64,000 bases of DNA, taken from NCBI GenBank assembly GCA_963845185.1, contig CAWJRG010000009.1:536743-600742 (forward strand), in the 5' to 3' direction. The first letter of the stretch is position 1; each line of letters begins with the position of its first letter. Positions 7,199 to 46,562 of the stretch are shown here, piece after piece. Both the position numbers and the translations under genes were made by a program. The stretch comes from an uncultured bacterium. GTDB taxonomy: Bacteria; Oederibacteriota; PGYV01; CAWJRG01. The notes beneath the pieces were generated by a model. It did no database searches. It had not been told where the DNA came from and worked only from the letters and a program-made list of their open reading frames with translations.

Positions 7199-7199
7199 A

Positions 7200-10100
7200 A
7201 TGCCAAAGGCTAGGGCAAAAGAAAAACGAAGCAGAGAAGGGGCGTGTAAAAATAATCTGATAATATTTTTTATTTTTTACGCAATTATACTAATGCCTTC
7301 CATGGCTTTTGCTACGACAACTGTCCAGAACATGGCAGTCTCACCGGGCACTGTATCCGCAGGCCAGAATGTAACGATAACATTTTCATTTATGAGCACA
7401 AATACAGGCTGTAAAATATCATATTTCGCGGCTTTATCAAACCAGTGCGCCCTGCAAAACGCGGGTACAGCGGGCCAGTCCATACTTGTTTCAGAATCAG
7501 GCATGGATGTATTAAACACAAGCGTTAACGGCGGCAGGACCAGCCTGTGCAACGGGGACAATACCTATCACGCTACAACAGAAACCACGTGCGGCATGGA
7601 AACAGGCGGGGGGCCTATTTACATGACCGTGCCGTCAAGCTGGGCAAACGGCACATATTACGCGATAGTTGCGGTCAGGGACTGCAATATATACATGAAC
7701 CCGGCATGCTGCTCAAATATGGACAACCAGTATTGCGTGTCATTTAATGTGGGTGTGGCGGGTTCGCCGACAAATACGCCCTTGCCGACGAGGACAACGA
7801 CGCCCACGCCCGTGCCTGTCGGGGTTATAGTCAATGTGGCGCAGATAGGTTTTGGCAATTCCAGCAGCGTTTCTTTTAATGTTTTATCGCCAACGCAGAC
7901 AAGCACGCAGCAGTCAAACCCGACTTTTACACGGACCTCAACAATGACAAATACAAAGACAAGCACACCATCTTTTACATTTACATGCACAAATACATTC
8001 ACTCCAACAAACACATTTACCGTAACAGGCACAAATACGCCGCAGAACACGGTTACATTAACCGCTACAGGCACAAGCACGGCATTGCCTACAGCTACAA
8101 ATACGGCAACGCCTACACTTTCGGCGACAAGGACAAATACTGTGACCCCGACATATACGGCTACGGCGACAAATTCGCAATTGCCTACAGCTACGCGCAC
8201 AAATACACCGACATATACAGTTACCTTAACGTGGACAAGCACGTTGCAGAACACGGTTACATTAACCGCTACAGGCACAAGCACGCCATTGCCTACAGCT
8301 ACAAATACGGCAACACCTACACTGTCAGCGACAAGGACAAATACTGTTACGCCTACATTTACCAGTACAACTACCGTGACTTATACAAATACCCTGACAT
8401 GGACAAACACGCCACAAAATACAGCAACATTAACAGCTACAGGAACAAATACGTTATTGCCGACAGGAACAAACACACAATCTCCTTCACCTTCGGCTAC
8501 GGTGAGCATGACAGCTACGAGGACGAGCACAGCGACAAATACGCCGACATATACAGCCACCCTGACATGGACAAACACACCACAGAACACAATAACTTTG
8601 ACAGCTACAGGAACAAATACACCATCAGCTACAGCTACATTTACAGCAACAAAGACAAGCACAGCAACAAATACACCGACATATACAGTTACCTTAACGT
8701 GGACAAACACACCACAGAACACGGTGACTTTAACCGGGACAGAAACGAATACACCCTCAGCTACAGCTACATTTACAGCGACAAGAACAAATACATTGAC
8801 ATATACGGCTACGATGACGTGGACCAACACACTGCAGAATACAATAACTTTAACAGTTACAGGAACGGATACATCCTCAGTTACGCCTACGTTTACGGTG
8901 ACAAAAACAAACACTGCATCTAATACACCGACATATACATGTACAATGACAGGCACAAGTACGGTGACGTTGACATTTACACTGACAAATACGCCTTCAT
9001 TAACAGTAACAGCAACTTTCACAAGAACAGTTACACCGACATTTACCAGTTCACCTGTGGTATCACCTACACCCACATTTACGAATATAATATTCACATG
9101 GACAATAACGCAAACATTTACCATATCCCCGACAATTACAATGACAAACACGTTATTGCCCACAGGAACAAACACAGCAACGCCTTCATTAACGGCGACA
9201 AGGTCAAATACGGCAACACCAACATTCACTTCGACACCCACGGCAACATATACAGTCACCCTGACGTGGACAAACACACCGCAGAACACGGCAACTTTAA
9301 CTGAGACAAGCACAAATACCCAGCTGCCAACAGGGACAAATACAGCAACGCCTTCATTAACGGCAACAAGGTCGAGCACGGCAACACCGACTTTAACTGT
9401 AACATCTACGGCGACGTATTCAGTCACCCTTACATTGACAAATACGCCGCAGAACACAGCGACTTTTACAGCAACAGAAACAAACACATCTTCTGCGTCG
9501 CCTACATTTACAATGACAAGGACAAATACTGCCACAAATACCCAGACAAACACACCTTCATTTACAACAACACTGACTTTTACAAGAACAGTTACATTGA
9601 CATTTACCAGTTCACCCGCGGTATCACCCACACCCACATTTACGAACATAATATTCACATGGACAATAACGCAAACATTTACAATATCCCCGACAATTAC
9701 CATGACAAACACGCCGATCCCGACAGAAACAAATACAGAGACGCCTACTTTTACAGCAACACGGACAAACACAGCAACGATGACTTTAACTACGACATTG
9801 ACGCAGACATATACAATTACTTTAACGTGGACAAGCACAGCGCTAGATACTGCTACTTCAACGGAAACAGGCACAAATACAATATTGCCAACATGGACAA
9901 GCACAGCGACATTAACGTTCACAGATACAAGGACATACACTGCGACAATTACGCCGACATATTCAGCAACATTGACCTGGACAAACACGCCGCAGAACAC
10001 AACAACCTTAACTGTTACTGCTACAAATAGCTGCGCCTGTACAGGGACTCCGACTTATACAGCAACTATTTTTACGCCTACAATTACTCCTACATATACA

Positions 10101-11312
10101 GTGTCATTGACAATTACCCTGACAAACACGCCTTCGCCTACAGCAACATATACAGCTACACCTACGGGAACAAAGACAATAACACCAACATGGAGCCCGA
10201 CGAATACACCGACACTGATAGATACACCTACATTCACCGGTACAGCAACTGCCACAATTACACTTACGTTTACAGGAACATCGACATTTACAGCAACAAT
10301 TATATACACACTTACCAATACTGAAATTGTATCGGAAACACCGACTTATACAGCCACAATTTACACGCCGACAATTTCGCCGACATCTACAATAACACCA
10401 ACAATAACATTAACGGAATCGCCTTCATTAACAGATACGGCAACGTACACTACAACAGGAACAAAGACATGGACAAATACACCATTACCTACGCTTACAA
10501 ATACGCCACAAAACACCGCAACAAGTACAGTCACGCCTACTGTAGGAGCAAATCTTGTAGCGGCTATTACTGTATCGCCGGGGAGTGCAATGATCGGCCA
10601 GGATATAACTGTAATAATGCAAGTAGTAAATACAGGGACAAATGGCGTGGATAACTTACAGCCTTCAACGCTGGCTCAAACAGGCGGTGGAACAGCTGTC
10701 CTTGTAAGCGGGCCCAGCCCTGCAAGTACTGCAATAGCCTCGGGGACAGCAGGATCATTTACGTGGATATATACAGTGACTTCTGTGGCAGGGAACATAA
10801 CATTCAGCGGCAGTGCAAGCGGCACAGACGCGGTAAACGGCATAATAGTTTCAACTTCATCAGTGTCGAGTAATCCTTTAATATGCGTTACAGCCACAGC
10901 AACATTAGCAAATTCGATTACAGTTACCATAACGGCGACAAATACAATAACGCCGAGTATTACGGCGACCAATCCAGTGGCGACAGCCAGCTTTACACCG
11001 ACAAACCAGGTTACTGTTTTGACTGTCACTGCTACTATTGTTATCGCAGAACCGCCACGGATATATCCAAACCCGGTGAAAGACAGGTTTAGATATGTAT
11101 TTACCCTGACAGAAGACGCGGATATAGAAATAACAATATATACAGCGGCATACAGGCTGATAGCAAAATTTGACCAGAGACAGAGCGCAGGGTTAAACAC
11201 TATTGTAATAGACACACAAGGTATGGCAAACGGAACATATTTTATCGTATATAAGCAAAAAGGGCAGACAACAAATACCAGAAGAATTGATAAATTTATT
11301 GTTTTAAAATAA
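7200..11312 (+). CDS. Giant secreted cell-surface protein: Cys-containing N-terminal domain, about 900 aa of Thr-x-Thr repeats, DUF11/CARDB-like domain, T9SS/FlgD-Ig-like C-terminal sorting domain
   Basis: ATG at 7200 is preceded by ggagatggag and followed by a signal peptide (LIIFFIFYAIILMPSMAFA). The long ORF drawn from 7095 lies in the same frame but overlaps the GH5 gene. Repeats such as TPTYTVTLTWTNTPQNTVTLTATGTNT recur throughout. The C-terminus reads YPNPVKDRF...IYTAAYRLI...GTYFIVY...FIVLK. Confidence 0.8.
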   Translation: MPKARAKEKRSREGACKNNLIIFFIFYAIILMPSMAFATTTVQNMAVSPGTVSAGQNVTITFSFMSTNTGCKISYFAALSNQCALQNAGTAGQSILVSESGMDVLNTSVNGGRTSLCNGDNTYHATTETTCGMETGGGPIYMTVPSSWANGTYYAIVAVRDCNIYMNPACCSNMDNQYCVSFNVGVAGSPTNTPLPTRTTTPTPVPVGVIVNVAQIGFGNSSSVSFNVLSPTQTSTQQSNPTFTRTSTMTNTKTSTPSFTFTCTNTFTPTNTFTVTGTNTPQNTVTLTATGTSTALPTATNTATPTLSATRTNTVTPTYTATATNSQLPTATRTNTPTYTVTLTWTSTLQNTVTLTATGTSTPLPTATNTATPTLSATRTNTVTPTFTSTTTVTYTNTLTWTNTPQNTATLTATGTNTLLPTGTNTQSPSPSATVSMTATRTSTATNTPTYTATLTWTNTPQNTITLTATGTNTPSATATFTATKTSTATNTPTYTVTLTWTNTPQNTVTLTGTETNTPSATATFTATRTNTLTYTATMTWTNTLQNTITLTVTGTDTSSVTPTFTVTKTNTASNTPTYTCTMTGTSTVTLTFTLTNTPSLTVTATFTRTVTPTFTSSPVVSPTPTFTNIIFTWTITQTFTISPTITMTNTLLPTGTNTATPSLTATRSNTATPTFTSTPTATYTVTLTWTNTPQNTATLTETSTNTQLPTGTNTATPSLTATRSSTATPTLTVTSTATYSVTLTLTNTPQNTATFTATETNTSSASPTFTMTRTNTATNTQTNTPSFTTTLTFTRTVTLTFTSSPAVSPTPTFTNIIFTWTITQTFTISPTITMTNTPIPTETNTETPTFTATRTNTATMTLTTTLTQTYTITLTWTSTALDTATSTETGTNTILPTWTSTATLTFTDTRTYTATITPTYSATLTWTNTPQNTTTLTVTATNSCACTGTPTYTATIFTPTITPTYTVSLTITLTNTPSPTATYTATPTGTKTITPTWSPTNTPTLIDTPTFTGTATATITLTFTGTSTFTATIIYTLTNTEIVSETPTYTATIYTPTISPTSTITPTITLTESPSLTDTATYTTTGTKTWTNTPLPTLTNTPQNTATSTVTPTVGANLVAAITVSPGSAMIGQDITVIMQVVNTGTNGVDNLQPSTLAQTGGGTAVLVSGPSPASTAIASGTAGSFTWIYTVTSVAGNITFSGSASGTDAVNGIIVSTSSVSSNPLICVTATATLANSITVTITATNTITPSITATNPVATASFTPTNQVTVLTVTATIVIAEPPRIYPNPVKDRFRYVFTLTEDADIEITIYTAAYRLIAKFDQRQSAGLNTIVIDTQGMANGTYFIVYKQKGQTTNTRRIDKFIVLK
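7900..10545 (+). repeat. In-frame ACN-codon tandem repeat array (period about 117-120 bp) with nested long repeats
   Basis: Diverged tandem units encode TLTWTNTPQNT-x-TLTATGTNT. Near-identical 123-bp copies lie at 9031-9153 and 9591-9713. A second repeated unit lies at 9176-9230 and 9341-9400. Confidence 0.85.
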
Positions 11313-25253: not shown

Positions 25254-26120
25254 ATGAATCTCAAGGAAAAAGAAGAGCAAATAAAGAAAATAGTGGACAG
25301 AATGAAGGCTTTGCCTACACTTTCTATAGTTGTTGCTAATGCAATTCAAGTTGTTTCTAATCCTTTGACCTCTGCTTCCGATTTAAGCAGGATAATATCG
25401 GTTGACCAAGCCTTGACGGCTAAAGTTTTAAGGCTTGCAAATTCAGCATTTTATGGGTTTCCTTTTAGAATTAAAAATATAACCCAAGCCATAGCTATCC
25501 TGGGGTTTGATACCATCAGAAACTTGGTACTTACGGTGTCAGTATATAAAATATTCACGAAAGATATTAATATAGAGTTTTCACACCAGGAATTTTGGAA
25601 ACACTGCGTGGGCGTGGCAATATGCGCAAAATTACTGGCAAAAAGAATAAAATATAAGTCAATTGAAGGTGCATTTACCGCAGGGCTTTTGCATGATATA
25701 GGAAAAAATTTCTTTGAAGAGTATATGACAAATGAATTTCAGCAGGTTTTAAAATATGTAAAGGAACACAATACAAGCATTTATAACGCTGAAAAGGAAG
25801 TGATAGGGGTTGACCATGCGACTGTTGGGAAATGGATGGCTGAAAAGTGGAACCTGCCCCAGGAACTTGTCGCGGGGATAGGATATCATCACAATCCTAA
25901 TGAAGAAAAAGAAGAATATGTAATAGCAACAATAATAAATGCAGCAAATATATTATGCAAACAAAAAGGGATAGGTTTCTCGGGGGATAATTCGATAATG
26001 CCTTTGAACAGAGAGAATAGAAACCTCCTTAACCTTGATGAAAATAATGAAAAGGCACTTATTGAATCGCTTGATGGCGAGCTTAAAGAGGCTGAGGCAT
26101 TTTTATCAATACCACAGTAG
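25254..26120 (+). CDS. HDOD domain signalling protein
   Basis: HDOD-type degenerate HD motif LLHDIGK, with surrounding helices of typical HDOD length. Confidence 0.8.
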   Translation: MNLKEKEEQIKKIVDRMKALPTLSIVVANAIQVVSNPLTSASDLSRIISVDQALTAKVLRLANSAFYGFPFRIKNITQAIAILGFDTIRNLVLTVSVYKIFTKDINIEFSHQEFWKHCVGVAICAKLLAKRIKYKSIEGAFTAGLLHDIGKNFFEEYMTNEFQQVLKYVKEHNTSIYNAEKEVIGVDHATVGKWMAEKWNLPQELVAGIGYHHNPNEEKEEYVIATIINAANILCKQKGIGFSGDNSIMPLNRENRNLLNLDENNEKALIESLDGELKEAEAFLSIPQ

Positions 26121-26294
26121 TGATGTCATAAATGGCAGCTGAAAGTCATAAAATATATACTATGGGGATTTGTGGAGCCAGAGGTTATAGGTTAAAAATA
26201 AAAGATTAAAATTCCAAGCTTAAAACCAAAAGCAGAAACAACTGTATTTGCTAAGAAATTTTCACAGAACAATGACGCAGGAGGTCGCAATATT

Positions 26295-27428
26295 ATGCCT
26301 GACAGTGAAGGAACCAGCGAACTAAAAGATTATATAAAAAATTTAGAGGTCATAAATGAAGGGTTAAGGCAATCGTTTGAGGATTTGACTACCCTTTACC
26401 GTCTTGTTGACATCATTACAGAAGCCAAAACACTTGAACGAGTTTTAAATTCCTTGATGGATCTTACAGCTGAAATAATATCCTATGTCGGTGCCGAGCT
26501 TTTTTTAATAGACGAAAAAACAGGCGAGCTTGATGTGGGAATAAAAAGGAATATAAGCAAAAGTATTGAAGCAAAAATAAACCTTCAAAATAAAAGAAAA
26601 GTAATTGACTGGGCTTTAAAAGAGGGCAGAACAATAGCCATGCCGGATATTGAGGAAGAAATACCGGAGTCTCAGAAAATGACCATTGTGTTGGTGCCTT
26701 TAATTGCCCACGACAAGTCAATAGGCATACTTGATATCATTACCGATACAGGAGAAGGTAATATCACCAGCAGGGATTTATCACTGCTGACAGTACTTGC
26801 CAAACAGGCAGCTCTTGCAATTGAAAATGTCAAGCTTTATGAGAGTATGAAGAAGGATCAGATCAGCATAATAAGGGCGCTTGCATCGACAGTTGACGCA
26901 AAGGATCATTACACACTCGGCCATTCACAAAAAGTTTCCGAGTTATCTGTATCAATAGCCGAAGAACTCGGGCTGCCGGAAAGGGAAATTGAAATAATTC
27001 AATATGCAGGGCTTTTACATGACGTAGGAAAAATAGCGATACCTGATGAAGTGATAAAAAAACCGACAAAGCTTACAGCAGAGGAATTTGAGATTGTAAA
27101 GAATCATCCTGCTGTCGGCGCAAAAATTATAAAAGAAATAGAGGCTCTTTCGCCAATGGTGCCTATAGTGCTTCACCATCATGAGCGCTTTGACGGGAAA
27201 GGATATCCCAACGGGTTAAAGGGGGAAGAAATACCTATCGGAGCTCGCATAGTTCTTGTCGCTGATGCATTTGATACAATGGTATCAGCAAGAGCATACA
27301 GGGATATGATGCCGAATGAGCTGGCAATTTCCGAACTGCGTAAAAACGCAGGGACCCAATTTGATCCAAATGTGGTGGACGCTTTAATCATACGTTTGAG
27401 GAAAAAAGCGGTGGATAATGAGCGATAG
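26295..27428 (+). CDS. GAF domain plus HD-GYP domain protein (putative c-di-GMP phosphodiesterase)
   Basis: HD-GYP motifs HSQKVSELS...LLHDVGKIAIPD...HHERFDGKGYPNGL. Confidence 0.85.
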   Translation: MPDSEGTSELKDYIKNLEVINEGLRQSFEDLTTLYRLVDIITEAKTLERVLNSLMDLTAEIISYVGAELFLIDEKTGELDVGIKRNISKSIEAKINLQNKRKVIDWALKEGRTIAMPDIEEEIPESQKMTIVLVPLIAHDKSIGILDIITDTGEGNITSRDLSLLTVLAKQAALAIENVKLYESMKKDQISIIRALASTVDAKDHYTLGHSQKVSELSVSIAEELGLPEREIEIIQYAGLLHDVGKIAIPDEVIKKPTKLTAEEFEIVKNHPAVGAKIIKEIEALSPMVPIVLHHHERFDGKGYPNGLKGEEIPIGARIVLVADAFDTMVSARAYRDMMPNELAISELRKNAGTQFDPNVVDALIIRLRKKAVDNER

Positions 27429-28878
27429 TTTTTCATTCGAAAAATTATTCTATAAAGAAAACGACAGCATCCCTTTTATAGTAGCCAACATTATTTTAAT
27501 AGCATTTATAACCGTGGTTTTATTTATAATTGCATTGGACCCAAGAAAAGCACTTATAATGATTCTGGGATATTTTTTAATTGTCTATGCTTTCTATACT
27601 ATGGGAAAAGGTATATGCGTTATATACGGAATAATTTACAATTTTTTTATACTTGCCCTAATGCTTACCGCCCATAAAAACGCAAGTGCTCTATGGGGAT
27701 ATTTTTTTATTATGGTTTCAAGCATAGGTCTTATTTTTCAGGTTATAAGTTATATTAATGAAATAGAAGAAGAAAAGAGTTTAATTGAGATAAAAGAAAC
27801 TGAATTTTTAAAGGAAATGAACGACACCAAAAAAAATATTGAAAAAAATAGAAATATGATGGAAGGAAACGAAACAAGGATAGAAAACTATAACCTATTG
27901 AATAAAATAGCCCAGAAGCTTTCCAGCACGCTTCGCAGGACAGATATTGTGAAAATAATTTCTACTGAAATGTCGCGGATAGCTGGAAATAAAAAAATCA
28001 ATTTTCAAGTCATTATCTGGGATGAGGATGCGCAGGCATATTTTCCGGTAGAAACGGATAATATTGAATACGGCACAATGAAAATTTATAAGAAAGACGC
28101 TTTTGATGAGTGGATATTTACTAATAAATTTACTCTGCTGATCAAGAATATCGACGAAGATTTCAGGTTTAAAATGCTTGAAAAGGAAGATTTGAAATTT
28201 AAATCCATGGTAGCTGTTCCGCTTGTGGAAGAAAAAAAAATTATTGGAATTTTAAAGTTTATGGCGGAGGAAGCCAATGTATTCGACACAGAAGACGCCA
28301 GACTTTTTAATTATCTTGGCGATGTGTGCACAACAGCTGTTGAAAACGCTATTCTTTATAAAAAAACCGAGGATCTTGCAATAAAAGACGGACTCACAGG
28401 GCTATTTATACGAAGATATTTTATTGAAAAACTTGAAGAAGAAGTAAGAAGGGCAAGACAAAGCGGAAGTACTTTTTCCTTTTTAATGATTGACCTCGAC
28501 CATTTCAAGGAATGCAATGATACTTACGGGCATCTTGCGGGCGACAGCGTATTAAAAGATCTGGGAACATATTTAGGAAGCTTTGTAAGAGATGTGGATA
28601 TAATAGGCAGGTATGGAGGAGAGGAATTCGCCATTATACTTCCCGATACTTCCTTGAATGGCGCAAGGTTTGTAGCGGAAAGAATCAGGGCCGATTTTGA
28701 AAAGCACCAACTAAAAATATCCGACGAGAAAACTATAAAACTTACATTGAGCATTGGCGGTGTTGAATTCAAAAAGGACCATAAACTTATGGAAATAGTA
28801 AACATGGCCGACAAAGCGCTATATTACTCAAAAGGAAACGGCAGAAATATGGTAACTTTCTGGGAGGACATAAATTGA
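27418..28878 (+). CDS. Membrane-anchored GAF-GGDEF diguanylate cyclase
   Basis: N-terminal TM helices. GGDEF region RRYFIEKLEEE...DLDHFKECNDTYGH...RYGGEEFAIIL. Overlaps the upstream gene by 11 nt. Confidence 0.85.
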   Translation: MSDSFSFEKLFYKENDSIPFIVANIILIAFITVVLFIIALDPRKALIMILGYFLIVYAFYTMGKGICVIYGIIYNFFILALMLTAHKNASALWGYFFIMVSSIGLIFQVISYINEIEEEKSLIEIKETEFLKEMNDTKKNIEKNRNMMEGNETRIENYNLLNKIAQKLSSTLRRTDIVKIISTEMSRIAGNKKINFQVIIWDEDAQAYFPVETDNIEYGTMKIYKKDAFDEWIFTNKFTLLIKNIDEDFRFKMLEKEDLKFKSMVAVPLVEEKKIIGILKFMAEEANVFDTEDARLFNYLGDVCTTAVENAILYKKTEDLAIKDGLTGLFIRRYFIEKLEEEVRRARQSGSTFSFLMIDLDHFKECNDTYGHLAGDSVLKDLGTYLGSFVRDVDIIGRYGGEEFAIILPDTSLNGARFVAERIRADFEKHQLKISDEKTIKLTLSIGGVEFKKDHKLMEIVNMADKALYYSKGNGRNMVTFWEDIN

Positions 28879-30299
28879 ATAGACCCAGGATAAACCTGCT
28901 AATACTTAGCTTGATTTTATACACAGTAACTATCATCAGCAATAAATTATTGGTTAAAGATTCTGATTATAATTCACTTGTATTAAGCCTGCCACTTCTA
29001 ATGCCTGAAATCAGGAGGAGATTTGATAAAATAGGGGCTTTAGTTTTCAGTATAATTTTAGTTGCCGCAACGCTTGTCCTTGCTTTGCCTTCGATAAATG
29101 TCATTTCACGTGAAATTTTCATTATTGTTTTTCTTTTTTTTCTCACGCTTTATTTTTATCCGGATTTTTTTACGGCGTATATAAGAAAAATAAATCAAAA
29201 AGAATTATCGCTTCAGCAAAAAATACATGAGCTTAAAAAGATGAAAGATGAAATTGGATCGCTATCCAAGATTAACGAAGACCTAGAAAAAGAAATAAAG
29301 GATGTAACTTCACTTTATGGCATGATAAAAGAATTAGGTTCCCGGTCCCTGACGCTGACAGACAGCATTGGCAATATAACGGAGACTATAAAAAGAATAA
29401 TCAAATATAACTTCAAAATAAACCTCGATGAAATAAATTTTTTTATGATTGTGAAAAAAGGAAACATTTTTTCGGTAGCGCAGTCATTTGGGTACGATGA
29501 GAATTATTTGAAAGAAAACGAAAAAACAATAATTGAGGCCGTACTGAAAAGAATATCCGATAAGCGCGATATGATATATAGCAATAAACTTGACAATAAA
29601 GAATGGGATAAAAACGAGGCTTTTTTTAATAAAAGTGTGTTATACGTTCCTTTTTATGTGGAAAATAAACTGCTTGGAGTTTTATTCTTTTCCGGGAGCA
29701 AAGAAAATATTTTTGACGAAAAGCAAATTGCAAGCATAAGAATTTTAACAAACCAGATTGCGATATTACTGGAAAAAGTTTCTCTTTACGAAGAAGAAGC
29801 TATGATGTCAAAAATAGACAGTTTAACAGGACTTTATGTACACAGAGAATTTCAGGAACGGCTTGAAAATGAATTAAAGCGAAGTTCCAGATACCAAAAA
29901 GAACTGGGGCTTATAATGGGAGATATTGATTTTTTTAAAAAGATGAACGATTATTACGGGCATCTGGCAGGCGATTATGTACTTAAAACAATAGCACTTA
30001 TTTTAAAAAATAATACGGACCCGGCAGATTCAGTGGCTAGATATGGCGGCGAGGAATTTGTTATTATTTTGCCTGATTCAGACAAGAAAAAAGCTTTTTT
30101 AAAAGCAGAATCAATTAGAAAAGTAATTGAGGATTATGGATTTGCATATAAAGGGACAAAAATGGGCGTAACAATGAGCTTTGGTGTTGCGGCATATCCT
30201 GGCGATGCTATAACGCGAAGATCATTAATTGATAAAGCAGACAAGGCACTTTATAAAGCTAAAGAAACAGGCAGAAATAAAGTATTAAAAAGCGAATGA
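28875..30299 (+). CDS. Membrane-anchored GAF-like-GGDEF diguanylate cyclase
   Basis: TM helices, coiled coil, then HREFQERLENE...DIDFFKKMNDYYGH...RYGGEEFVIIL. The start overlaps the previous stop (ATGA). Confidence 0.85.
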   Translation: MNRPRINLLILSLILYTVTIISNKLLVKDSDYNSLVLSLPLLMPEIRRRFDKIGALVFSIILVAATLVLALPSINVISREIFIIVFLFFLTLYFYPDFFTAYIRKINQKELSLQQKIHELKKMKDEIGSLSKINEDLEKEIKDVTSLYGMIKELGSRSLTLTDSIGNITETIKRIIKYNFKINLDEINFFMIVKKGNIFSVAQSFGYDENYLKENEKTIIEAVLKRISDKRDMIYSNKLDNKEWDKNEAFFNKSVLYVPFYVENKLLGVLFFSGSKENIFDEKQIASIRILTNQIAILLEKVSLYEEEAMMSKIDSLTGLYVHREFQERLENELKRSSRYQKELGLIMGDIDFFKKMNDYYGHLAGDYVLKTIALILKNNTDPADSVARYGGEEFVIILPDSDKKKAFLKAESIRKVIEDYGFAYKGTKMGVTMSFGVAAYPGDAITRRSLIDKADKALYKAKETGRNKVLKSE

Positions 30300-30575: not shown

Positions 30576-30600
30576 GCAACTTTTTTATAATTCAGTCGTA
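30576..30600 (+). promoter_or_regulatory. ECF-type promoter candidate upstream of the ECF sigma gene (GCAAC-N16-CGTA)
   Basis: gcaac at 30576-30580 and cgta at 30597-30600, 32 nt upstream of the ATG. This resembles the AAC-N16/17-CGT(A/C) architecture of autoregulated ECF promoters. Confidence 0.4.
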
Positions 30601-30631
30601 CTAATAAGAAGTCGAAATATAAAGGTGAAAA

Positions 30632-31222
30632 ATGGATATTGAAAAAGAAAATGAATTAATTGAACAATCAAAATCAGATCCGAAAGCATTTGAAAAGTTG
30701 TTTGATAATTATTATCATGCCGTTTTTAGATATGCAGCACACAGAACGGGAAATATAGAAGTCTCAAGCGATATTGCGGCTGAAACATTTTTTAAAGCAT
30801 TTAATAAAATTTATACTTATAATCCTAAAATAGCCCCGTTTTCGGCATGGCTTTTTAAAATAGCCAATAATGAAACAAATTATTATTTCAGGAAACACAA
30901 ATATACACCCTTTTCTTATAATGCCGCAGTTGAAGATGGTGGATTCAGGGAACCGGCATCGCCAGTCGATATTGAAAAGGAATTTATGGATGCGCAGGAA
31001 GAAATGGAAAAAAACAAGGATTTTTTACAGGTAAAGGAAGCTATATGCAAATTACCCGCAAGATATCAGGAGGTAATAGTTCTTAAGTTTCTGGAGGATA
31101 AAAAAATTTCCGAAATCAGTTTAATCCTGAATAAAAAAGAAGGAACAATAAAATCACTTATATCCAGGGGTTTGGCAAGATTGCGAAAATATTTTTCCCG
31201 AAAAAGACGCAACCATTTATAA
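30632..31222 (+). CDS. RNA polymerase ECF-type sigma factor (sigma-70 regions 2 and 4)
   Basis: Region 2 sequence YHAVFRYAAHRTGNIEVSSDIAAETFFKAF. Region 4 helix-turn-helix ISEISLILNKKEGTIKSLISRGLARLRK. Confidence 0.85.
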   Translation: MDIEKENELIEQSKSDPKAFEKLFDNYYHAVFRYAAHRTGNIEVSSDIAAETFFKAFNKIYTYNPKIAPFSAWLFKIANNETNYYFRKHKYTPFSYNAAVEDGGFREPASPVDIEKEFMDAQEEMEKNKDFLQVKEAICKLPARYQEVIVLKFLEDKKISEISLILNKKEGTIKSLISRGLARLRKYFSRKRRNHL

Positions 31223-31271
31223 TCTGAAGCATATATTAAGTAACAGCAAGAATAACGAAAGGCGGCTTTAA

Positions 31272-32099
31272 ATGGAAGAAAAAGATATAATTAAAAAGCT
31301 GGAAAAAGCAAGGCTTTCAATGCATGGGTTTAAAGCCCACGGCGCCAGAGTTAAAGCAGTGCTTTTTAGCAGGAAAATTAAAGAGGAAAGAAAATATATA
31401 CCCGAATATTTTAAAATTTTAACAGCCATGGCTGGCATGTTTGTTTTGGCAATTGCGTCTTATTATGTAGTTGATAACATGGATAAAGGTAATAAATTCA
31501 ATAAAAACGGTGGAATCTGGTCAACCTACAGCGATGTTCAGGAAGGTGGAGATTCAAAGGTATGGCCTCCGCCGGCTTCAGCAACTGGAAATGATTTTGT
31601 GATGTCAAAGCCCGGTTACGGAGGAGAGGGTTACGCAGTAAGGATTACAGGCATGACAGGCTCCAAACTCGGCTTAAATTATAATTATTTTGGCGTGGTA
31701 AACAGATTTAGCAGTGATTCTTCCTGCCCCAAATGTAAAGGTGCAAATATTAAAAAATATTCCGGCATAATGTTCAGGATTAAGGGAAAAATACTGTCAG
31801 GCAATCTTTTTTTTATACTGCCTTATGAAGGCAATGAGTGCGTAGCTGAAAGGCTTACATGCAAGAGTTTGACCGGCTATGCGGATTACGAAAAGGACAT
31901 TACAAATGAAGTCAAGCAAAACTGGAACTTTATTGTTATTGATTTCAGAAGAGATTTAAGGCAACCTTATTGGACGCCAAACAATGCAGTTGTGCCGATT
32001 GAGAAAGTACTTGAAAATGTTCACCTTTTCAAGTGGCAGTTTAAAAACGGGGACGGCAATTTAGTGGATATTTGGATTGATAATGTCCGACTTTTCTAA
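31272..32099 (+). CDS. Putative anti-sigma factor/sensor: short cytoplasmic segment, one TM helix, extracytoplasmic CBM-like beta-sandwich domain
   Basis: TM helix ILTAMAGMFVLAIASYYVV. The C-terminal domain ends in NLVDIWIDNVRLF, echoing the xIYVDNVKA ending of the CBM-like N-domain in the downstream hydrolase. Confidence 0.55.
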   Translation: MEEKDIIKKLEKARLSMHGFKAHGARVKAVLFSRKIKEERKYIPEYFKILTAMAGMFVLAIASYYVVDNMDKGNKFNKNGGIWSTYSDVQEGGDSKVWPPPASATGNDFVMSKPGYGGEGYAVRITGMTGSKLGLNYNYFGVVNRFSSDSSCPKCKGANIKKYSGIMFRIKGKILSGNLFFILPYEGNECVAERLTCKSLTGYADYEKDITNEVKQNWNFIVIDFRRDLRQPYWTPNNAVVPIEKVLENVHLFKWQFKNGDGNLVDIWIDNVRLF

Positions 32100-32198
32100 C
32101 GTAAAGATTGAAAAAAGACCGAAAGGAGGCATGTACAGAGTTTAAATCTAGATTATTTGCGAAGTAATTAATTTGCTGAAGAAAATACTGAAAAAAAT

Positions 32199-32228
32199 GT
32201 GGACAAAAAAAAATATATTACTTATAAT
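32199..32228 (+). promoter_or_regulatory. Sigma70-like promoter for the glycoside hydrolase gene (TGGACA-18-TATAAT)
   Basis: tggaca at 32199-32204 and tataat at 32223-32228. Confidence 0.45.
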
Positions 32229-32268
32229 AACAGCACTTAATTGAAAAATATAAAAAGGAGGAAGGAAA

Positions 32269-34590
32269 ATGAAAAAAAGCAAGAAAACATTATTTTTATC
32301 GGCAATTGTTTTTTCTTTATTGTTTATTTTATGTTTTAGTAAGATAGCGTTTGCTGCGGACACCACGCAAGATGCAAAAGCAGTTGAAGCAATGAAAGCA
32401 AGCCATAATATTGTACTGTGGAATTTCGAAGATGGCACAACAGATGGGTGGCATGGTGCAGGCGCAAAATGGGGAAAAGCTTCCTCGGTCAACAACAAAT
32501 CTGATTTTGTAAGCGAAGGAAAATACTCTTTGGAAATTAATTGTAAGGGTTCGACGGACTGGAACCAGGATGCTGCGGTCAATGATGGGCCGTTTCCGAA
32601 AGAGTTTCAAAAACTTGTCGAGATCACAATGGATGTATTCGTGCCAGCAGAGACATTAAAAGGAATGGAATATGCCGAGCTTTATTTCGTGATTTCTGGC
32701 GCTGCAAATACATGGTATCAGCTCAAACAACAGTTAAATCAGGGCTGGAACAATCTGGTATTTAAGGTTGACACGGCAAATGTAAGAGGAGAGATATGGC
32801 ATACGTATATTGTAGTAAATTCAACCGAGCCTTTTAACGGGCCAATCTATGTTGACAATGTAAAAGCAAGGGTACAGGGACCATTGGGCGAAATTAAAGG
32901 TAAAGCCATTGATAAAGACAGTAAACAGCCATTAAAAGGAGCATGTTTTGTAATTGGTGATACTTTGGTTAAAACCGACGACGGTGGAAATTTTCAGGCA
33001 AATGTATACGAGGATGAATATAGTAAATTGGCAATTATTATGCCGGGATATATGGATAAGACAATGGATAAAGTTGTTGTTTGGGGTGGAAAAACCACTG
33101 ATTTAGGAGAAGTTTTAGTCACTAAGAAAAGCGAGCCTAAAGAAGAGCAGGTAAATGTTACAGTAGATGCGTCAAAGGTTATAAGGGAATTTGATCCGCA
33201 CAAGGTTTATGGCAACAACGCAGCAGTGTGGGATAAAAAAGACGGATTTGTTGACAATATTGCACTTGAAAAAATAAGAAAATCAGGTGCCACACTTATT
33301 AGGTTCCCTGGCGGTGATTACGGCAACCTTTATAACTGGAAAACAGGTGAGGTTTATAAATGGGATGGTTCTGTTTCATGGACGCCGGAAATGAATTATT
33401 ATATGTTTATAGCCTTCATGAAAAGGCTTGACCCAATAAATGCCGAAGTACTTCCAACCTTAAATGTAATGACACCTCCAAACAAGACATTAGTGGAAAG
33501 AGTTAAATTTCAGATAGAATGGCTTAAGGACATGAGGGAAAAAGGTCTTAAATTCCGGTACGTTGAAATCGGAAACGAGCCTGATAACAAGCCTGCGGTA
33601 AAAGCACCATCCGATATGAAAAAATTGGCGAAGAAAAAAGACGGTACGGAATTCTGGACAAGTATTGATGATTACTGCGCTGTTTTTAACGAAGCAGCAA
33701 GCATTATAAAAAAAGAGATTCCTGATGTAAAAATTTTGGGTCCAGTTCCAATGCAACCAATGAATCAACTTAGATTGGAAGGAGAGCCATGGAAAGCCGA
33801 AGGCGACCCAAAAGCGCCTTTCTGGCTTGAAAGGTTTTTAAAACTTTCGGGTAAATATGTAGATGTCTTGGTGACACATGAATATCCATTATGGGCAAAT
33901 AACAGCACTGTGGCACTTTTGAAAAGGCCGCAGGAAACATGGCCGGTATATATGCCGAAAATAAAAGCATGGATGAAAAAGTACGTGCCTGAAAAAGCTG
34001 ACACTATGGAAGTTGCCTTAACCGAATGGAACTCGGGGCAAGAAAATCCGACAACGGCACAGCTTATAAACGGTTTGTTTGCGGCAGACTATCTTGCATC
34101 TTTTATTAAGTCGGGTGGAGATATAGCTTGTATCTGGGACATGTATACACAGAAAGCTGGCCAGGGTGGAGGGCACGGAGTTCTTGATGAAGAGTTTGAT
34201 CCTAGCAATAAATATGCGGAAAGGTCATCTTACTGGGCGCTATATATGATGTATAACATGTTGGGTAAAAAAATGGTTAAAGCAGATTCAAATAACCAGG
34301 ATCTTTCCGTTTACGCTACAATGCTTGACGACGGAAATTTGGCGATAATGGCTATAAACAAAACAAGCTTGTCGAAATGCAAGGCAACAATAGATATTTC
34401 CGGCTTTAACGTGGGAAATGGCACTGCGGATGCTTGGCAATTTTCAGATAAGGAATATGTATGGAGCACAATGCTTTTTAGGGCAATTATTAACTCGGGC
34501 CCATCTCAGTTCCAGATTAACAATGTGAAAAACACGTTTACTGAAGATTTCCCGCCTTATTCAATCACGATATTGCATATAAAAAAGTAA
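32269..34590 (+). CDS. Secreted clan GH-A glycoside hydrolase (GH51/GH39/GH79-like) with N-terminal CBM-like domain and CarbopepD_reg-like domain
   Basis: Signal peptide present. Catalytic-domain motifs LIRFPGGDYGNLYNW, YVEIGNEPD (acid/base) and LTEWNSG (nucleophile-like DEWN). Confidence 0.7.
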   Translation: MKKSKKTLFLSAIVFSLLFILCFSKIAFAADTTQDAKAVEAMKASHNIVLWNFEDGTTDGWHGAGAKWGKASSVNNKSDFVSEGKYSLEINCKGSTDWNQDAAVNDGPFPKEFQKLVEITMDVFVPAETLKGMEYAELYFVISGAANTWYQLKQQLNQGWNNLVFKVDTANVRGEIWHTYIVVNSTEPFNGPIYVDNVKARVQGPLGEIKGKAIDKDSKQPLKGACFVIGDTLVKTDDGGNFQANVYEDEYSKLAIIMPGYMDKTMDKVVVWGGKTTDLGEVLVTKKSEPKEEQVNVTVDASKVIREFDPHKVYGNNAAVWDKKDGFVDNIALEKIRKSGATLIRFPGGDYGNLYNWKTGEVYKWDGSVSWTPEMNYYMFIAFMKRLDPINAEVLPTLNVMTPPNKTLVERVKFQIEWLKDMREKGLKFRYVEIGNEPDNKPAVKAPSDMKKLAKKKDGTEFWTSIDDYCAVFNEAASIIKKEIPDVKILGPVPMQPMNQLRLEGEPWKAEGDPKAPFWLERFLKLSGKYVDVLVTHEYPLWANNSTVALLKRPQETWPVYMPKIKAWMKKYVPEKADTMEVALTEWNSGQENPTTAQLINGLFAADYLASFIKSGGDIACIWDMYTQKAGQGGGHGVLDEEFDPSNKYAERSSYWALYMMYNMLGKKMVKADSNNQDLSVYATMLDDGNLAIMAINKTSLSKCKATIDISGFNVGNGTADAWQFSDKEYVWSTMLFRAIINSGPSQFQINNVKNTFTEDFPPYSITILHIKK

Positions 34591-44348: not shown

Positions 44349-44425
44349 GGGCGCATAGCTCAGTTGGTTAGAGTATCAGCTCGACAAGCTGAGGGTCACT
44401 GGTTCGATCCCAGTTGCGCCCACCA
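44349..44425 (+). tRNA. tRNA-Val (anticodon GAC) with encoded CCA
   Basis: Acceptor stem gggcgca/tgcgccc. D-arm gctcagttggttagagt. Anticodon stem tcagc/gctga with loop tcGACaa. T-arm gggtcactggttcgatcccagt. 3' acca. Confidence 0.9.
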
Positions 44426-44447
44426 TAATTTAATAGGAGACAATACA

Positions 44448-46562
44448 ATGAAATTTAAGATTAACTTGAATGGTAAATGGAAATTCAAAGTTCAGGGTAA
44501 AGAAACAAAAATTAAGGTGCCATCAAACTGGTATTTGCAGGGGCATGATATTTTCGGCAAAGCAGAGTACTCGAGGGATTTTATAGTTAAAAAAATCAAA
44601 TCAACTAATTATTTTGTTATTTTTGACGGTGTTGATTATTTCACCGATGTCTATATCAACAACAAGCCGGCAGGCAGGCATGAAGGGTATTTCCAACGAT
44701 TCAGATTTGACATAACAAAATTGCTGAAAGATGGAAAGAACGAAATAAAAGTTATTGTCGATTCTCCCAAGGAATCTGAAGAAATATGGCCAGATAAAAA
44801 GATACTTATCAAGGGCATATTTAACCATCACGATACCAGGCCGGGCTCATGGAGTAAAAAATTCGGGCAGGATAAAAATACAGGCGGTATATGGAATAAT
44901 GTTTATATTACTGCAGTTAATTCTGTTGAGATTGAAAGAGTCAAGATAACGCCTTTGTTAAAAGACGATGAAAATTGGAATGTGTCGCATGAATTGCTTA
45001 TAAATAATTACACAGGAAAAGCACTGGAATGTGCAATAAACGCGCTGATTGTCTCGGTTAATTTCAGGGGAGCTTCAAAAGAGATTAAAAACAGCGTATT
45101 GCTGCAGCCCGGTGTGAATAAAATCCAATTAAGTAATGACATGAAAAATCCGGCTTTGTGGTGGACCTGGGATTTCGGCAAGCAGAATCTTTATAAGTTT
45201 ACTTACCTTATTAACGCAGGAGGTATTAAAGACAGTTATTCGGACATCAGCGGCATAAGGGAATTTAAACGCAGAGAGGACAAGTGCTGGTATTTAAACG
45301 GCAAAAGAATATTTCTGCGCGGAACGAATATCATACCTACGCAGTGGCTTTCCGAATACACCAATGCCAAGATAAGAAAAGACGCTGAACTTTTAAAAGG
45401 TGCTAACATGAATATAGTGAGGATTCATGCCCACGTCAACAGGGAAGAACTTTACAGGGAAATGGACAGGGCAGGCATTATGGTGTGGCAGGATTTTGCC
45501 CTTCAGTGGGCATATGAAGAAACCGAGGAATTTACACGCAATGCATCAGCACAGATAAAGGACATGGTAAACCAGCATTATAACAGGCCTTCGATAACAA
45601 TTTGGTGCTGCCATAACGAGCCGTTTGTTAATTTAAAACAACTCGACCCTGTTCTTGTGACAAAAGTAAGGGAAGAAGACCCTGTGAGATATATTGAAAA
45701 GGCTTCGGATTTCGGACAGCATTTTTATCCTGGCTGGTATGTTGACGCGACGCCCGGGAATTTCAGCAGGGACATGTTGAATGCGAAAAAACAGCTGCTT
45801 GCATCCGAATACGGGGCACAGGCACTGCCTTGCCTTGCCTCCATGAAAAAAATATTCAAACCGTGCGAGCTTTTTCCTCCTGACCTGGAAAAGTGGATGT
45901 ACCATGATTTCCAGCCAGAACAAACATTTAATCAGGCTCACATTAACATAGGAAAAAATATAAGTGAATTTATCGAAAATTCCCAGCAGTACCAAGCAGA
46001 TCTTTTAAAAGATATTACCGAGACATTCAGGAAAGCAAGGTACGAAGTTGTCGGCGGTTTGCTGCAGTTTATGTTTTCCGAATGCTGGCCGTCTATAGCA
46101 TGGGGGGTTGTCGATTATTTCAGGGTGCCTAAAAAAGGATATTATTATTTAAAAACAGCTTTTCAGCCGGTTTACCCCGGATATGTGCTGACAAGAAAAA
46201 ACAAGTCAAAAGGAGAAAGAATAAGCTGGGGGACTTTATGGGATTCATTTTTTATAATAAACGACCTTCCTTATCCGTTGAAAAATATTACTGCGAGAAT
46301 GAAGTTTATTGATGCAAAAGGGAAAGTTTATTATGATGTTAAAAGTGTTGCGAAAAATATTCAGGCAGATTCCATGATTTATCCTTTTGAAGAAAAAGAG
46401 TTGCGTGCTGGAGAAAGGGACTCCTTTGAGATACCTGAAGATTCGGCTGCAGGCCAGCATAAAATTGTAATTGATTTATACGACAAGAGGAATAAAAAAA
46501 TGGCGCATAATTATTATGATTTTTTTGTTAATGAGCACTATGTGGCTCATAAATACAGATAA
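44448..46562 (+). CDS. Glycoside hydrolase family 2 (beta-mannosidase/beta-galactosidase-like), no signal peptide
   Basis: GH2 sugar-binding N-domain (FVIFDGVDYFTDVYINNKPAGRHEGYF). TIM-barrel segment NMNIVRIHAHVNREELYREMDRAGIMVWQDF. Acid/base motif WCCHNEP. ATG at 44448 follows taggaga. The longer upstream ORF would overlap the tRNA. Confidence 0.8.
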   Translation: MKFKINLNGKWKFKVQGKETKIKVPSNWYLQGHDIFGKAEYSRDFIVKKIKSTNYFVIFDGVDYFTDVYINNKPAGRHEGYFQRFRFDITKLLKDGKNEIKVIVDSPKESEEIWPDKKILIKGIFNHHDTRPGSWSKKFGQDKNTGGIWNNVYITAVNSVEIERVKITPLLKDDENWNVSHELLINNYTGKALECAINALIVSVNFRGASKEIKNSVLLQPGVNKIQLSNDMKNPALWWTWDFGKQNLYKFTYLINAGGIKDSYSDISGIREFKRREDKCWYLNGKRIFLRGTNIIPTQWLSEYTNAKIRKDAELLKGANMNIVRIHAHVNREELYREMDRAGIMVWQDFALQWAYEETEEFTRNASAQIKDMVNQHYNRPSITIWCCHNEPFVNLKQLDPVLVTKVREEDPVRYIEKASDFGQHFYPGWYVDATPGNFSRDMLNAKKQLLASEYGAQALPCLASMKKIFKPCELFPPDLEKWMYHDFQPEQTFNQAHINIGKNISEFIENSQQYQADLLKDITETFRKARYEVVGGLLQFMFSECWPSIAWGVVDYFRVPKKGYYYLKTAFQPVYPGYVLTRKNKSKGERISWGTLWDSFFIINDLPYPLKNITARMKFIDAKGKVYYDVKSVAKNIQADSMIYPFEEKELRAGERDSFEIPEDSAAGQHKIVIDLYDKRNKKMAHNYYDFFVNEHYVAHKYR

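Follow-up and report, generated by a model that had tools for sequence, protein, structure and literature searches.

Within a 64,000-nucleotide stretch of DNA from an uncultured, cellulose-degrading bacterium of the candidate phylum Goldbacteria (a stretch which we refer to as the window), three co-directional open reading frames (ORFs) of 196, 275 and 773 amino acids (aa) occupy positions 30632-34590 of the forward strand, and all features of this unit given below lie on that strand. They encode an extracytoplasmic function (ECF) sigma factor, a membrane partner with an outer domain resembling carbohydrate-binding module (CBM) family 11, and a secreted glycoside hydrolase (GH), and together they are most likely a carbohydrate-sensing switch. 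We consider it probable that the first two proteins form a pair of ECF sigma factor and single-pass anti-sigma factor which has the glycoside hydrolase as its output. A polysaccharide-sensing switch at this position had been put forward in an earlier reading of the window (the original prediction); all of the sequence features which it described are present where it placed them, and its interpretation as a whole is partly supported.

The sigma factor, its membrane partner and the putative sensor domain

The first gene (30632-31222) encodes a 196-aa protein with Pfam Sigma70_r2 (E 5e-11) and Sigma70_r4_2 (E 2.5e-14) domains, in which region 1 and region 3 are absent, and which scores 89.7 bits against the TIGR02937 ECF superfamily model (cutoff 42.9). 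This identifies it as a true ECF (group IV) sigma factor, as had been claimed. No named ECF equivalog in NCBIfam was reached, the BldN-family, SigW and SigY models giving 105.7, 98.8 and 87.9 bits against cutoffs of 194-243.

The second gene (31272-32099) encodes the 275-aa membrane partner, which ends in ...DIWIDNVRLF and has the layout of a membrane anti-sigma factor: its gene lies directly 3' of the sigma gene, the two are co-conserved, and the protein is a predicted single-pass protein with its N-terminus in the cytoplasm. The anti-sigma candidate is the cytoplasmic N-terminus (residues 1-45, 31272-31406), which contains 13 lysine or arginine residues and the conserved helix motif E-K-D-I-I-K-K-L; in alignment the motif takes the form E-K-D/E-I/L-I-K-K-L and is common to both of the paralog clades described below. 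A single transmembrane helix follows (residues 46-66, 31407-31469; hydrophobic stretch YFKILTAMAGMFVLAIASYYV), and the remainder (residues 67-275 plus the stop codon, 31470-32099) is a CBM11-like beta-sandwich, probably periplasmic, which we take as the sensor. AlphaFold modelling from a 32-sequence alignment placed a helix at residues 46-62 and an all-beta domain at residues 65-275 with pLDDT >90. Composition and model therefore agree with the arrangement originally described, a 45-aa cytoplasmic part, one transmembrane helix and an extracytoplasmic beta-sandwich ending in IWIDNVRLF. No record of the exact 275-aa window sequence was found, and homologs were used instead.

A structure search with the modelled ectodomain recovered a CBM fold, the outcome on which the earlier reading of this domain as CBM-like depended. 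CBM11 was the top structural match by two methods; Foldseek returned CBM11 entries first, including a complex with a mixed-linkage glucan tetrasaccharide (E 2.5e-8), and the modelled sandwich can be superimposed on CtCBM11. A profile of the ectodomain only matched the Pfam-validated CBM_11 regions of four proteins (P0096, P0112, P0087 and P0104) with independent E-values of 1e-14 to 1e-23. The same domain family also occurs as a module of GH9 (L037), GH8 (P0096, P0104, P0116), GH10 (P0100) and GH5 (P0107) enzymes. For example, a 1410-aa CelD_N-GH9 cellulase in a Goldbacteria genome (L037:3025-7257) carries a sensor-type domain at residues 974-1203. In all, 285 family members were recovered at E up to 1e-3 when 1.84 billion representatives were scanned; many form part of large proteins, as internal or as repeated modules, and the members of ~280 aa found elsewhere are lipoproteins. 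Given the profile matches to validated CBM_11 regions and the occurrence in glycoside hydrolases, we class the predicted sensor as a divergent module of the CBM11 superfamily, used in the manner typical of CBMs. Three cysteines of the domain (C152-P-x-C155 and C197) are invariant across both anti-sigma clades and may be involved in a disulfide or in metal binding.

Candidate promoters, cassettes and the putative output enzyme

Homologs of the 275-aa and 773-aa proteins are found almost only in metagenome bins of Candidatus Goldbacteria / FCPU426, some of which have been labelled 'Spirochaetia' by binning pipelines. Loci were gathered from exact-protein look-ups and from a scan of one genome per species, and were annotated with purpose-built hidden Markov models. 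Two cassettes emerge. Type A, the form present in the window, consists of sigma, anti-sigma and a hydrolase of ~770 aa and was found at ~20 distinct loci, with all three genes wherever the contig allows. Type B was found at 11 distinct loci (L006:6867-7550, L008:6009-6677, L025, L027-L031, L033-L035), and here sigma and anti-sigma genes are followed by a gene for a ~222-aa secreted free copy of the sensor domain, which matches the anti-sigma profile at E 1e-38 to 1e-63 and could be a decoy, buffer or co-receptor. Nine genomes hold both cassette types together, and the two anti-sigma paralog clades have diverged to about 40% identity. The ECF sigma gene stands immediately 5' of the membrane-protein gene at every one of the 29 loci with readable upstream sequence, the two genes often overlapping or lying 1-2 nucleotides (nt) apart, and in nine relatives the hydrolase gene begins at most 55 nt after the anti-sigma gene. 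The sigma/anti-sigma pair is present in every readable orthologous locus, and the expected co-conservation with the hydrolase thus holds.

Type A neighbourhoods are syntenic, with CoaE, HDOD, HD-GYP and two GAF-GGDEF genes upstream and PvlArgDC, speE, speB and YfhO downstream, and type B neighbourhoods are varied. In at least two genomes a canonical GH44 gene (Pfam Glyco_hydro_44) lies directly 5' of the type B sigma gene (L008:1396-4335 and L029:2601-4802), with no ECF motif seen 5' of either GH44 gene. Expanded intergenic regions of some relatives contain long inverted or direct repeats (L002:6829-7116, L018:5230-5360, L040:2260-2350), such as GAGACAAGAGA...TCTCTTGTCTC and AATTACTAATTAC...GTAATTAGTAATT, which may be small mobile or repetitive extragenic palindrome (REP)-like elements.

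All loci were scanned for the ECF-type pattern GCAAC-N16/17-C(G/A)T. A strict match occurs 30-65 nt 5' of the anti-sigma start in 27 of 30 loci, in both cassette types, against ~0.14 expected from the background rate, and the remaining three loci keep GCAAC at this place with a variant -10 element. In the window this promoter-like element (P2, GCAAC-N16-CAT, 31209-31232) overlaps the last sigma codons and lies 63 nt 5' of the anti-sigma ATG. The consensus across loci is GCAAC(C)-N16/17-(G)C(G/A)TTATA, with a spacer whose sequence is not conserved. The offset of P2 from the sigma stop codon runs from -73 to +46, so that some loci have it within the sigma ORF and others as far as 73 nt past the stop; a coding constraint on the sigma C-terminus was rejected on these grounds as the origin of GCAAC, and the variable position points to a DNA-level signal.

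A second ECF-type promoter-like element, P1 (GCAAC-N16-CGTA, 30576-30600), lies 32 nt 5' of the sigma ATG and is the motif from which autoregulation had been proposed. It is the single match to GCAAC-N16-CGTA in the window, which alone is not significant (0.30 expected, and 29% of shuffles contain one or more). The placement of P1 in the window is significant: among the ~128,000 positions on both strands of the window, a weight matrix trained solely on the sites of other genomes, the window being left out, ranked P2 (31209) first and P1 (30576) second, P1 scoring above the 99th percentile of the null. Counterparts of P1 stand 5' of the sigma gene in 4 of 18 hydrolase-type (A) loci and in 7 of 9 paralog-type (B) loci; as a general feature of the system it was rejected, most hydrolase-type loci being without the motif. 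The comparison indicates that P1 is lineage-specific and that P2 is the conserved element. The proposed autoregulatory site is thus the second-ranked match in the window, and it is at the same time the less conserved copy of the two. Both P1 and P2 are present in L040, an out-of-sample locus retrieved through its hydrolase after the pattern had been defined. The third-best matrix match in the window (31961-31994, score 8.8, GCAACCTTATTGGACGCCAAACAAT) falls in the 3' part of the anti-sigma gene, ~300 nt 5' of the hydrolase gene; it has no C(G/A)T -10 core and overlaps conserved QPYW codons, and is therefore probably due to chance or coding. Five other relaxed matches in the window all lie inside coding regions, and GCAAC-N16-C(G/A)T was not found 5' of the GH9 gene, the GH5 gene or, P1 and P2 apart, any other gene in the window.

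Directly 5' of the window hydrolase gene no ECF motif was found, and the sigma70-like promoter noted there originally, TGGACA-N17-TATAAT (32200-32228), is present with 11 of 12 consensus matches; the closest relative (L001) has a similar TAGACA-N17-TATAAT. At two loci with long spacers (L002, L018) the hydrolase gene is preceded by a GCAAC-N16-CGTTAA of its own. ECF-type promoters do therefore occur 5' of glycoside hydrolase genes in this family of loci, in addition to those 5' of the anti-sigma gene that precedes the third gene in the 27 of 30 loci. The 169-nt spacer between the anti-sigma and hydrolase genes of the window contains no terminator or stable hairpin, folding less stably than shuffled sequences (z +1.8), and the hydrolase gene is probably co-transcribed with the anti-sigma gene. 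The regulon, left open by the original prediction, is narrowed by these results, since the best-conserved ECF promoter lies 5' of the anti-sigma gene and has a terminator-free path to the hydrolase gene.

The hydrolase itself (773 aa, 32269-34590) has a Sec signal peptide and no type IX sorting domain. Its N-terminal sandwich is a CBM4/9-like module (about residues 47-202, 32407-32874; GPIYVDNVKA at residues 191-200), followed by a CarboxypepD_reg-like domain (residues 206-284, 32884-33120) and by a (beta/alpha)8 barrel with a beta-sandwich (residues 291-773, within 32269-34590). Pfam CBM_4_9 was matched by the sandwich in 9 of 22 orthologs (best E 1.5e-5), and 19 of the 22 have the CarboxypepD_reg domain after it. 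The marks of clan GH-A are all found, namely the barrel, an acid/base Glu in N-E-P after strand 4 (putatively E437, 33577-33579) and a nucleophile Glu after strand 7 (putatively E586, 34024-34026); N436-E437 is invariant and T585-E586-W587-N588 at least 90% conserved in a 22-sequence alignment, and the predicted catalytic pair is intact. No GH family in Pfam or NCBIfam matched the hydrolase, and Pfam Glyco_hydro_44 (PF12891) gave no match in the window protein or in the 22 orthologs. The profile of the 22 sequences partially matched the GH44 enzyme CelM2 (3fw6, E 9e-8) over residues 521-721, which comprise the nucleophile strand and C-terminal sandwich, and matched GH51 weakly at the R-F-P-G-G motif. 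We assign the predicted enzyme to clan GH-A, outside the Pfam families and nearest to GH44, GH51 and GH79. A paralog of 733 aa (35% identity; L038:1580-4893), in which a CBM9 replaces the CBM4/9-like module, lies directly 3' of a LacI-family regulator and not of a sigma/anti-sigma pair; the LacI-family neighbour indicates a catabolic role for the enzyme family.

A secreted GH-A hydrolase whose N-terminal CBM-like module ends in PIYVDNVKA is thus what had been predicted, and what is found. The further claim of a resemblance between the sensor and the CBM of the enzyme beside it, based on IWIDNVRLF in the one and PIYVDNVKA in the other, fails beyond the general beta-sandwich class, the sensor being CBM11-like and the hydrolase module CBM4/9-like. 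Kinship of the two sandwiches was rejected: BLASTP gave matches of 7-10 residues (E 0.3-1.3) and hhalign a probability of 0.4-0.5%, and the 'hydrophobic-x-(I/V)DNV' ending, being generic to last strands, was set aside as evidence.

The proposed switch and its alternatives

In the circuit that we propose, the sigma factor would be held at the inner membrane by the basic residues 1-45 of the 275-aa protein, and the CBM11-like domain, probably in the periplasm, would bind a beta-glucan-type chain or oligosaccharide, a ligand suggested by its fold and by the same domain family being appended to GH5, GH8, GH9 and GH10 enzymes. Binding would free the sigma factor, most likely via regulated proteolysis of the anti-sigma factor, by analogy with RsgI or RsiV, for which such proteolysis has precedent (RsgI, PMC10328401, PMC12203970; RsiV, PMC5014341); no site-2 protease was found among the larger ORFs scanned in the window. 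Free sigma would then guide RNA polymerase to GCAAC-N16/17-C(G/A)T promoters, with P2 as the target conserved throughout the phylum and P1, at the sigma gene itself, as a second. Transcripts from P2 would extend across the spacer, which has no terminator, to the hydrolase gene, and the sigma70-like promoter would give this gene a basal expression. Such a circuit would induce the enzyme and replenish the anti-sigma factor (a negative feedback), and in this genome it would also amplify the sigma factor.

Several results weigh against this circuit. Known anti-sigma domains (class I ASD/ZAS HxxxCxxC, RskA, RsiV-type and others) were sought in the 275-aa protein and 32 homologs, and none matched in Pfam or NCBIfam at E up to 1; residues 1-45 contain no Cys/His motif, and the cytoplasmic segment is just 45 aa long. 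The window 275-aa protein has no Pfam or NCBIfam match whatever, Pfam CBM_11 being matched in just two of the 32 homologs and weakly (best E 0.0018); because its own sequence stays below the curated CBM_11 threshold, CBM_11 membership of the window domain is supported transitively. Neither the family profile (A1) nor a broadened profile including CBM11 modules (A3) reached 1v0a, the CtCBM11 structure, in the PDB, so that the ligand-contact and cleft residues of CtCBM11 are not mappable onto the sensor, and the second-best structural match is CIA30, a protein-binding assembly factor or chaperone. As type A synteny extends widely, the co-conservation of the sigma/anti-sigma pair with the hydrolase is not independent of the conservation of gene order. 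The matrix scores of P2 (10.7) and P1 (9.3) are weak against the 18-39 of the training sites, which reflects deviating -10 elements (CATATA in P2, CGTACT in P1), and P1 is missing from most hydrolase-type loci, where the sigma gene starts <60 nt after a GGDEF gene.

This last arrangement is also part of the case for a different ligand. The switch may monitor a self-made exopolysaccharide or envelope glycan rather than food, its CBM11-like domain binding a beta-glucan of the cell itself. The hydrolase would then be a processing enzyme of the periplasm, comparable to BcsZ or PslG, and the unit would be tied in function to the cyclic di-GMP (c-di-GMP) and glycosyltransferase neighbours. The unit is immediately preceded by two GAF-GGDEF genes, an HD-GYP and an HDOD gene and followed by YfhO-like and TMEM260-like membrane glycosyltransferases, the c-di-GMP block keeps its position 5' of the sigma gene across Goldbacteria, and the short distance between the second GGDEF gene and the sigma gene in most relatives suggests that both are co-transcribed; the hydrolase, with a Sec signal peptide and without a type IX sorting domain, may stay periplasmic. 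We nevertheless regard a self-glycan as unlikely to be the signal, as the hydrolase is nearest, in sequence and in structure, to the catabolic GH44, GH51 and GH79 enzymes rather than to PslG or BcsZ, the sensor family is appended to catabolic GH5, GH8, GH9 and GH10 enzymes, canonical GH44 genes adjoin the paralog cassettes, which stand in unrelated neighbourhoods, a LacI-type sugar regulator accompanies the paralog of the hydrolase, and the phylum is cellulolytic (PMC7031533).

The missing anti-sigma domain and the 45-aa cytoplasmic tail would equally suit a 275-aa protein that is a membrane-anchored glycan-binding protein and a mere target of the sigma factor, which would then be controlled otherwise. 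A conserved ECF promoter 5' of the gene is what a target would have, the related 280-aa proteins elsewhere are lipoproteins with the same domain, and the next gene of the paralog cassette encodes a soluble secreted copy of it. Set against this are the pairing with an ECF sigma gene in 29 of 29 loci across two clades at about 40% identity, with start and stop codons that frequently overlap, the N-terminal helix motif conserved in both clades despite lying outside the glycan-binding domain, and the single-pass, N-in topology which is standard for anti-sigma factors, among which segments of 30-45 aa are known (e.g. RsiV, PMC5014341); a target role alone seems to us quite improbable. Finally, the pair may be genuine and its sandwich may sense a protein or a general envelope perturbation, with the hydrolase an unrelated neighbour under its own sigma70 promoter. 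The match to the chaperone CIA30, the strong sigma70-like promoter and 169-nt spacer in the window and the lack of an ECF motif directly 5' of the window hydrolase gene speak for such a reading, which we judge very unlikely, since the sensor family is found overwhelmingly in carbohydrate-active enzymes, no more than 55 nt separate the anti-sigma and hydrolase genes in nine relatives, two relatives have an ECF motif at the hydrolase gene itself, and the window spacer is free of a terminator.

The carbohydrate-sensing sigma/anti-sigma pair with the hydrolase as output is therefore the reading that we prefer, and it can be extended, more tentatively, to a class. Goldbacteria might possess an undescribed class of ECF switch, in which a minimal 45-aa anti-sigma segment is joined to a periplasmic CBM11-like receptor. 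In a diderm, this receptor would itself be the direct sensor of imported beta-glucan oligosaccharides, and neither a TonB-dependent transducer nor an autoproteolytic RsgI module would be needed. The promoter between the sigma and anti-sigma genes would make each pulse yield anti-sigma factor together with output, and the output of the sister cassette, a secreted receptor copy, would be a ligand buffer or decoy that tunes the switch. This wider proposal is possible but doubtful as a whole. Three elements appear new: a minimal anti-sigma factor that bears a CBM11-like receptor in a diderm candidate phylum, a duplicated cassette with a secreted receptor paralog as alternative output, and the placement of a promoter between the sigma and anti-sigma genes. 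A limited literature search, which is not proof, found no prior description of CBM11 joined to an anti-sigma factor or of such regulation in Goldbacteria.

For this uncultured phylum, the locus offers a concrete regulatory module of cellulose degraders, comprising a sigma factor, a receptor, two defined promoters and an output enzyme, and genomes can hold two copies of it that differ in output. The soluble domain of the receptor is small and suits binding assays, and the enzyme is of interest as a clan GH-A protein missed by the Pfam GH models, between GH44, GH51 and GH79. If the proposed circuit is true, the idea of the CBM as a transmembrane sensor would extend from the sigmaI systems of Gram-positive bacteria to ECF sigma factors in a diderm candidate phylum, and would provide synthetic biology with an orthogonal, carbohydrate-responsive ECF/promoter pair.

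Genomic setting and comparison with known systems

Elsewhere in the window, the gene for a 932-aa CelD_N-GH9-CBM9 cellulase (2552-5350) is preceded by a 320-nt region with GC-rich inverted repeats and adjoined by the gene for a 547-aa GH5 cellulase with a DUF11 domain (5555-7198). A 1405-aa ORF at 7095-11312 consists mostly of Thr-rich degenerate repeats (TNTPTYTATLTWTNTPQNT...) and ends in a type IX secretion C-terminal sorting domain; it accounts for the skewed composition at 8-10 kb (GC skew strongly negative at -0.30, AT skew high) and for the long spurious antisense ORFs there. From the two cellulases and the type IX secretion tail we infer that the organism is cellulolytic and probably diderm, and with type IX secretion substrates encoded the 'ectodomain' of the 275-aa protein is probably periplasmic. 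Goldbacteria captured on labelled cellulose by Doud et al. were shown by substrate-capture single-cell genomics to attach to and degrade cellulose, and one Goldbacteria genome was reported with 24 CBM11 copies and with GH5, 8, 9 and 44, its regulation not being discussed (PMC7031533). The c-di-GMP block directly 5' of the sigma gene spans 25254-30299 in the window and comprises HDOD-HD and GAF-HD-GYP proteins and two tandem GAF-GGDEF membrane proteins. Further downstream, a tRNA gene (44349-44422) covers the TTG listed as the start of a GH2-family ORF (44364-46562), the true start of which must therefore lie further downstream; a major facilitator superfamily transporter gene is next.

Among known components, CtCBM11 (PDB 1v0a, 6r3m) is the module of Lic26A-Cel5E that binds beta-1,4- and beta-1,3-1,4-glucan. 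The window domain shares 16-20% identity with it and differs in having extra conserved cysteines and in being joined to an anti-sigma N-terminus, not to an enzyme. As whole systems, the ECF10 and ECF240 groups of Bacteroidetes likewise use ECF sigma factors for carbohydrate scavenging in diderm cells (PMC7826278, PMC10766802). Theirs, however, work in polysaccharide utilisation loci through a SusC-like, TonB-dependent outer-membrane transducer and a FecR-type anti-sigma factor, whereas the window anti-sigma factor itself bears the putative glycan-binding domain and has no SusC-like gene adjacent. SigV/RsiV shares the short cytoplasmic anti-sigma segment, the single transmembrane helix and an extracytoplasmic ligand domain of ~200 aa, with the ligand licensing proteolysis (PMC5014341), but RsiV binds lysozyme via a different fold, no RsiV/DUF4179 signature is found in the window protein, and the window sigma factor resembles SigV no more closely than it does SigW or BldN.

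In sigma24C/Rsi24C of Clostridium thermocellum, an ECF-like sigma factor is coupled to a membrane anti-sigma factor bearing a carbohydrate-recognising module, an inactive cellulose-binding GH5 module (PMC3990059, PMC3526467); that module is a degenerate GH5 barrel, the host is a monoderm of another phylum, and we compare the two by layout and claim no homology. ECF52/53 proteins also carry carbohydrate modules (PMC10766802). With SigI/RsgI of the same Clostridium, the proposed window system has in common a single-pass anti-sigma factor, an extracytoplasmic CBM-type sensor, a gene beside that of the sigma factor, glycoside hydrolase targets and autoregulated operons (PMC10328401, PMC6056542). 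It differs in that the sigma factor is a two-domain ECF protein and not sigmaI, in the absence of RsgI_N and of the conserved autoproteolytic periplasmic domain, in the 45-aa length of the cytoplasmic segment and in the CBM11-like nature of the sensor, which in a probable diderm would see periplasmic oligosaccharides instead of the insoluble substrate. The original proposal of SigI/RsgI logic built on an ECF sigma factor thus stands as far as the logic is concerned and not as membership of the RsgI family, and ECF versions of this logic have precedent in sigma24C/Rsi24C and ECF52/53. The window pair is not a member of SigI/RsgI, yet it may work like RsgI.

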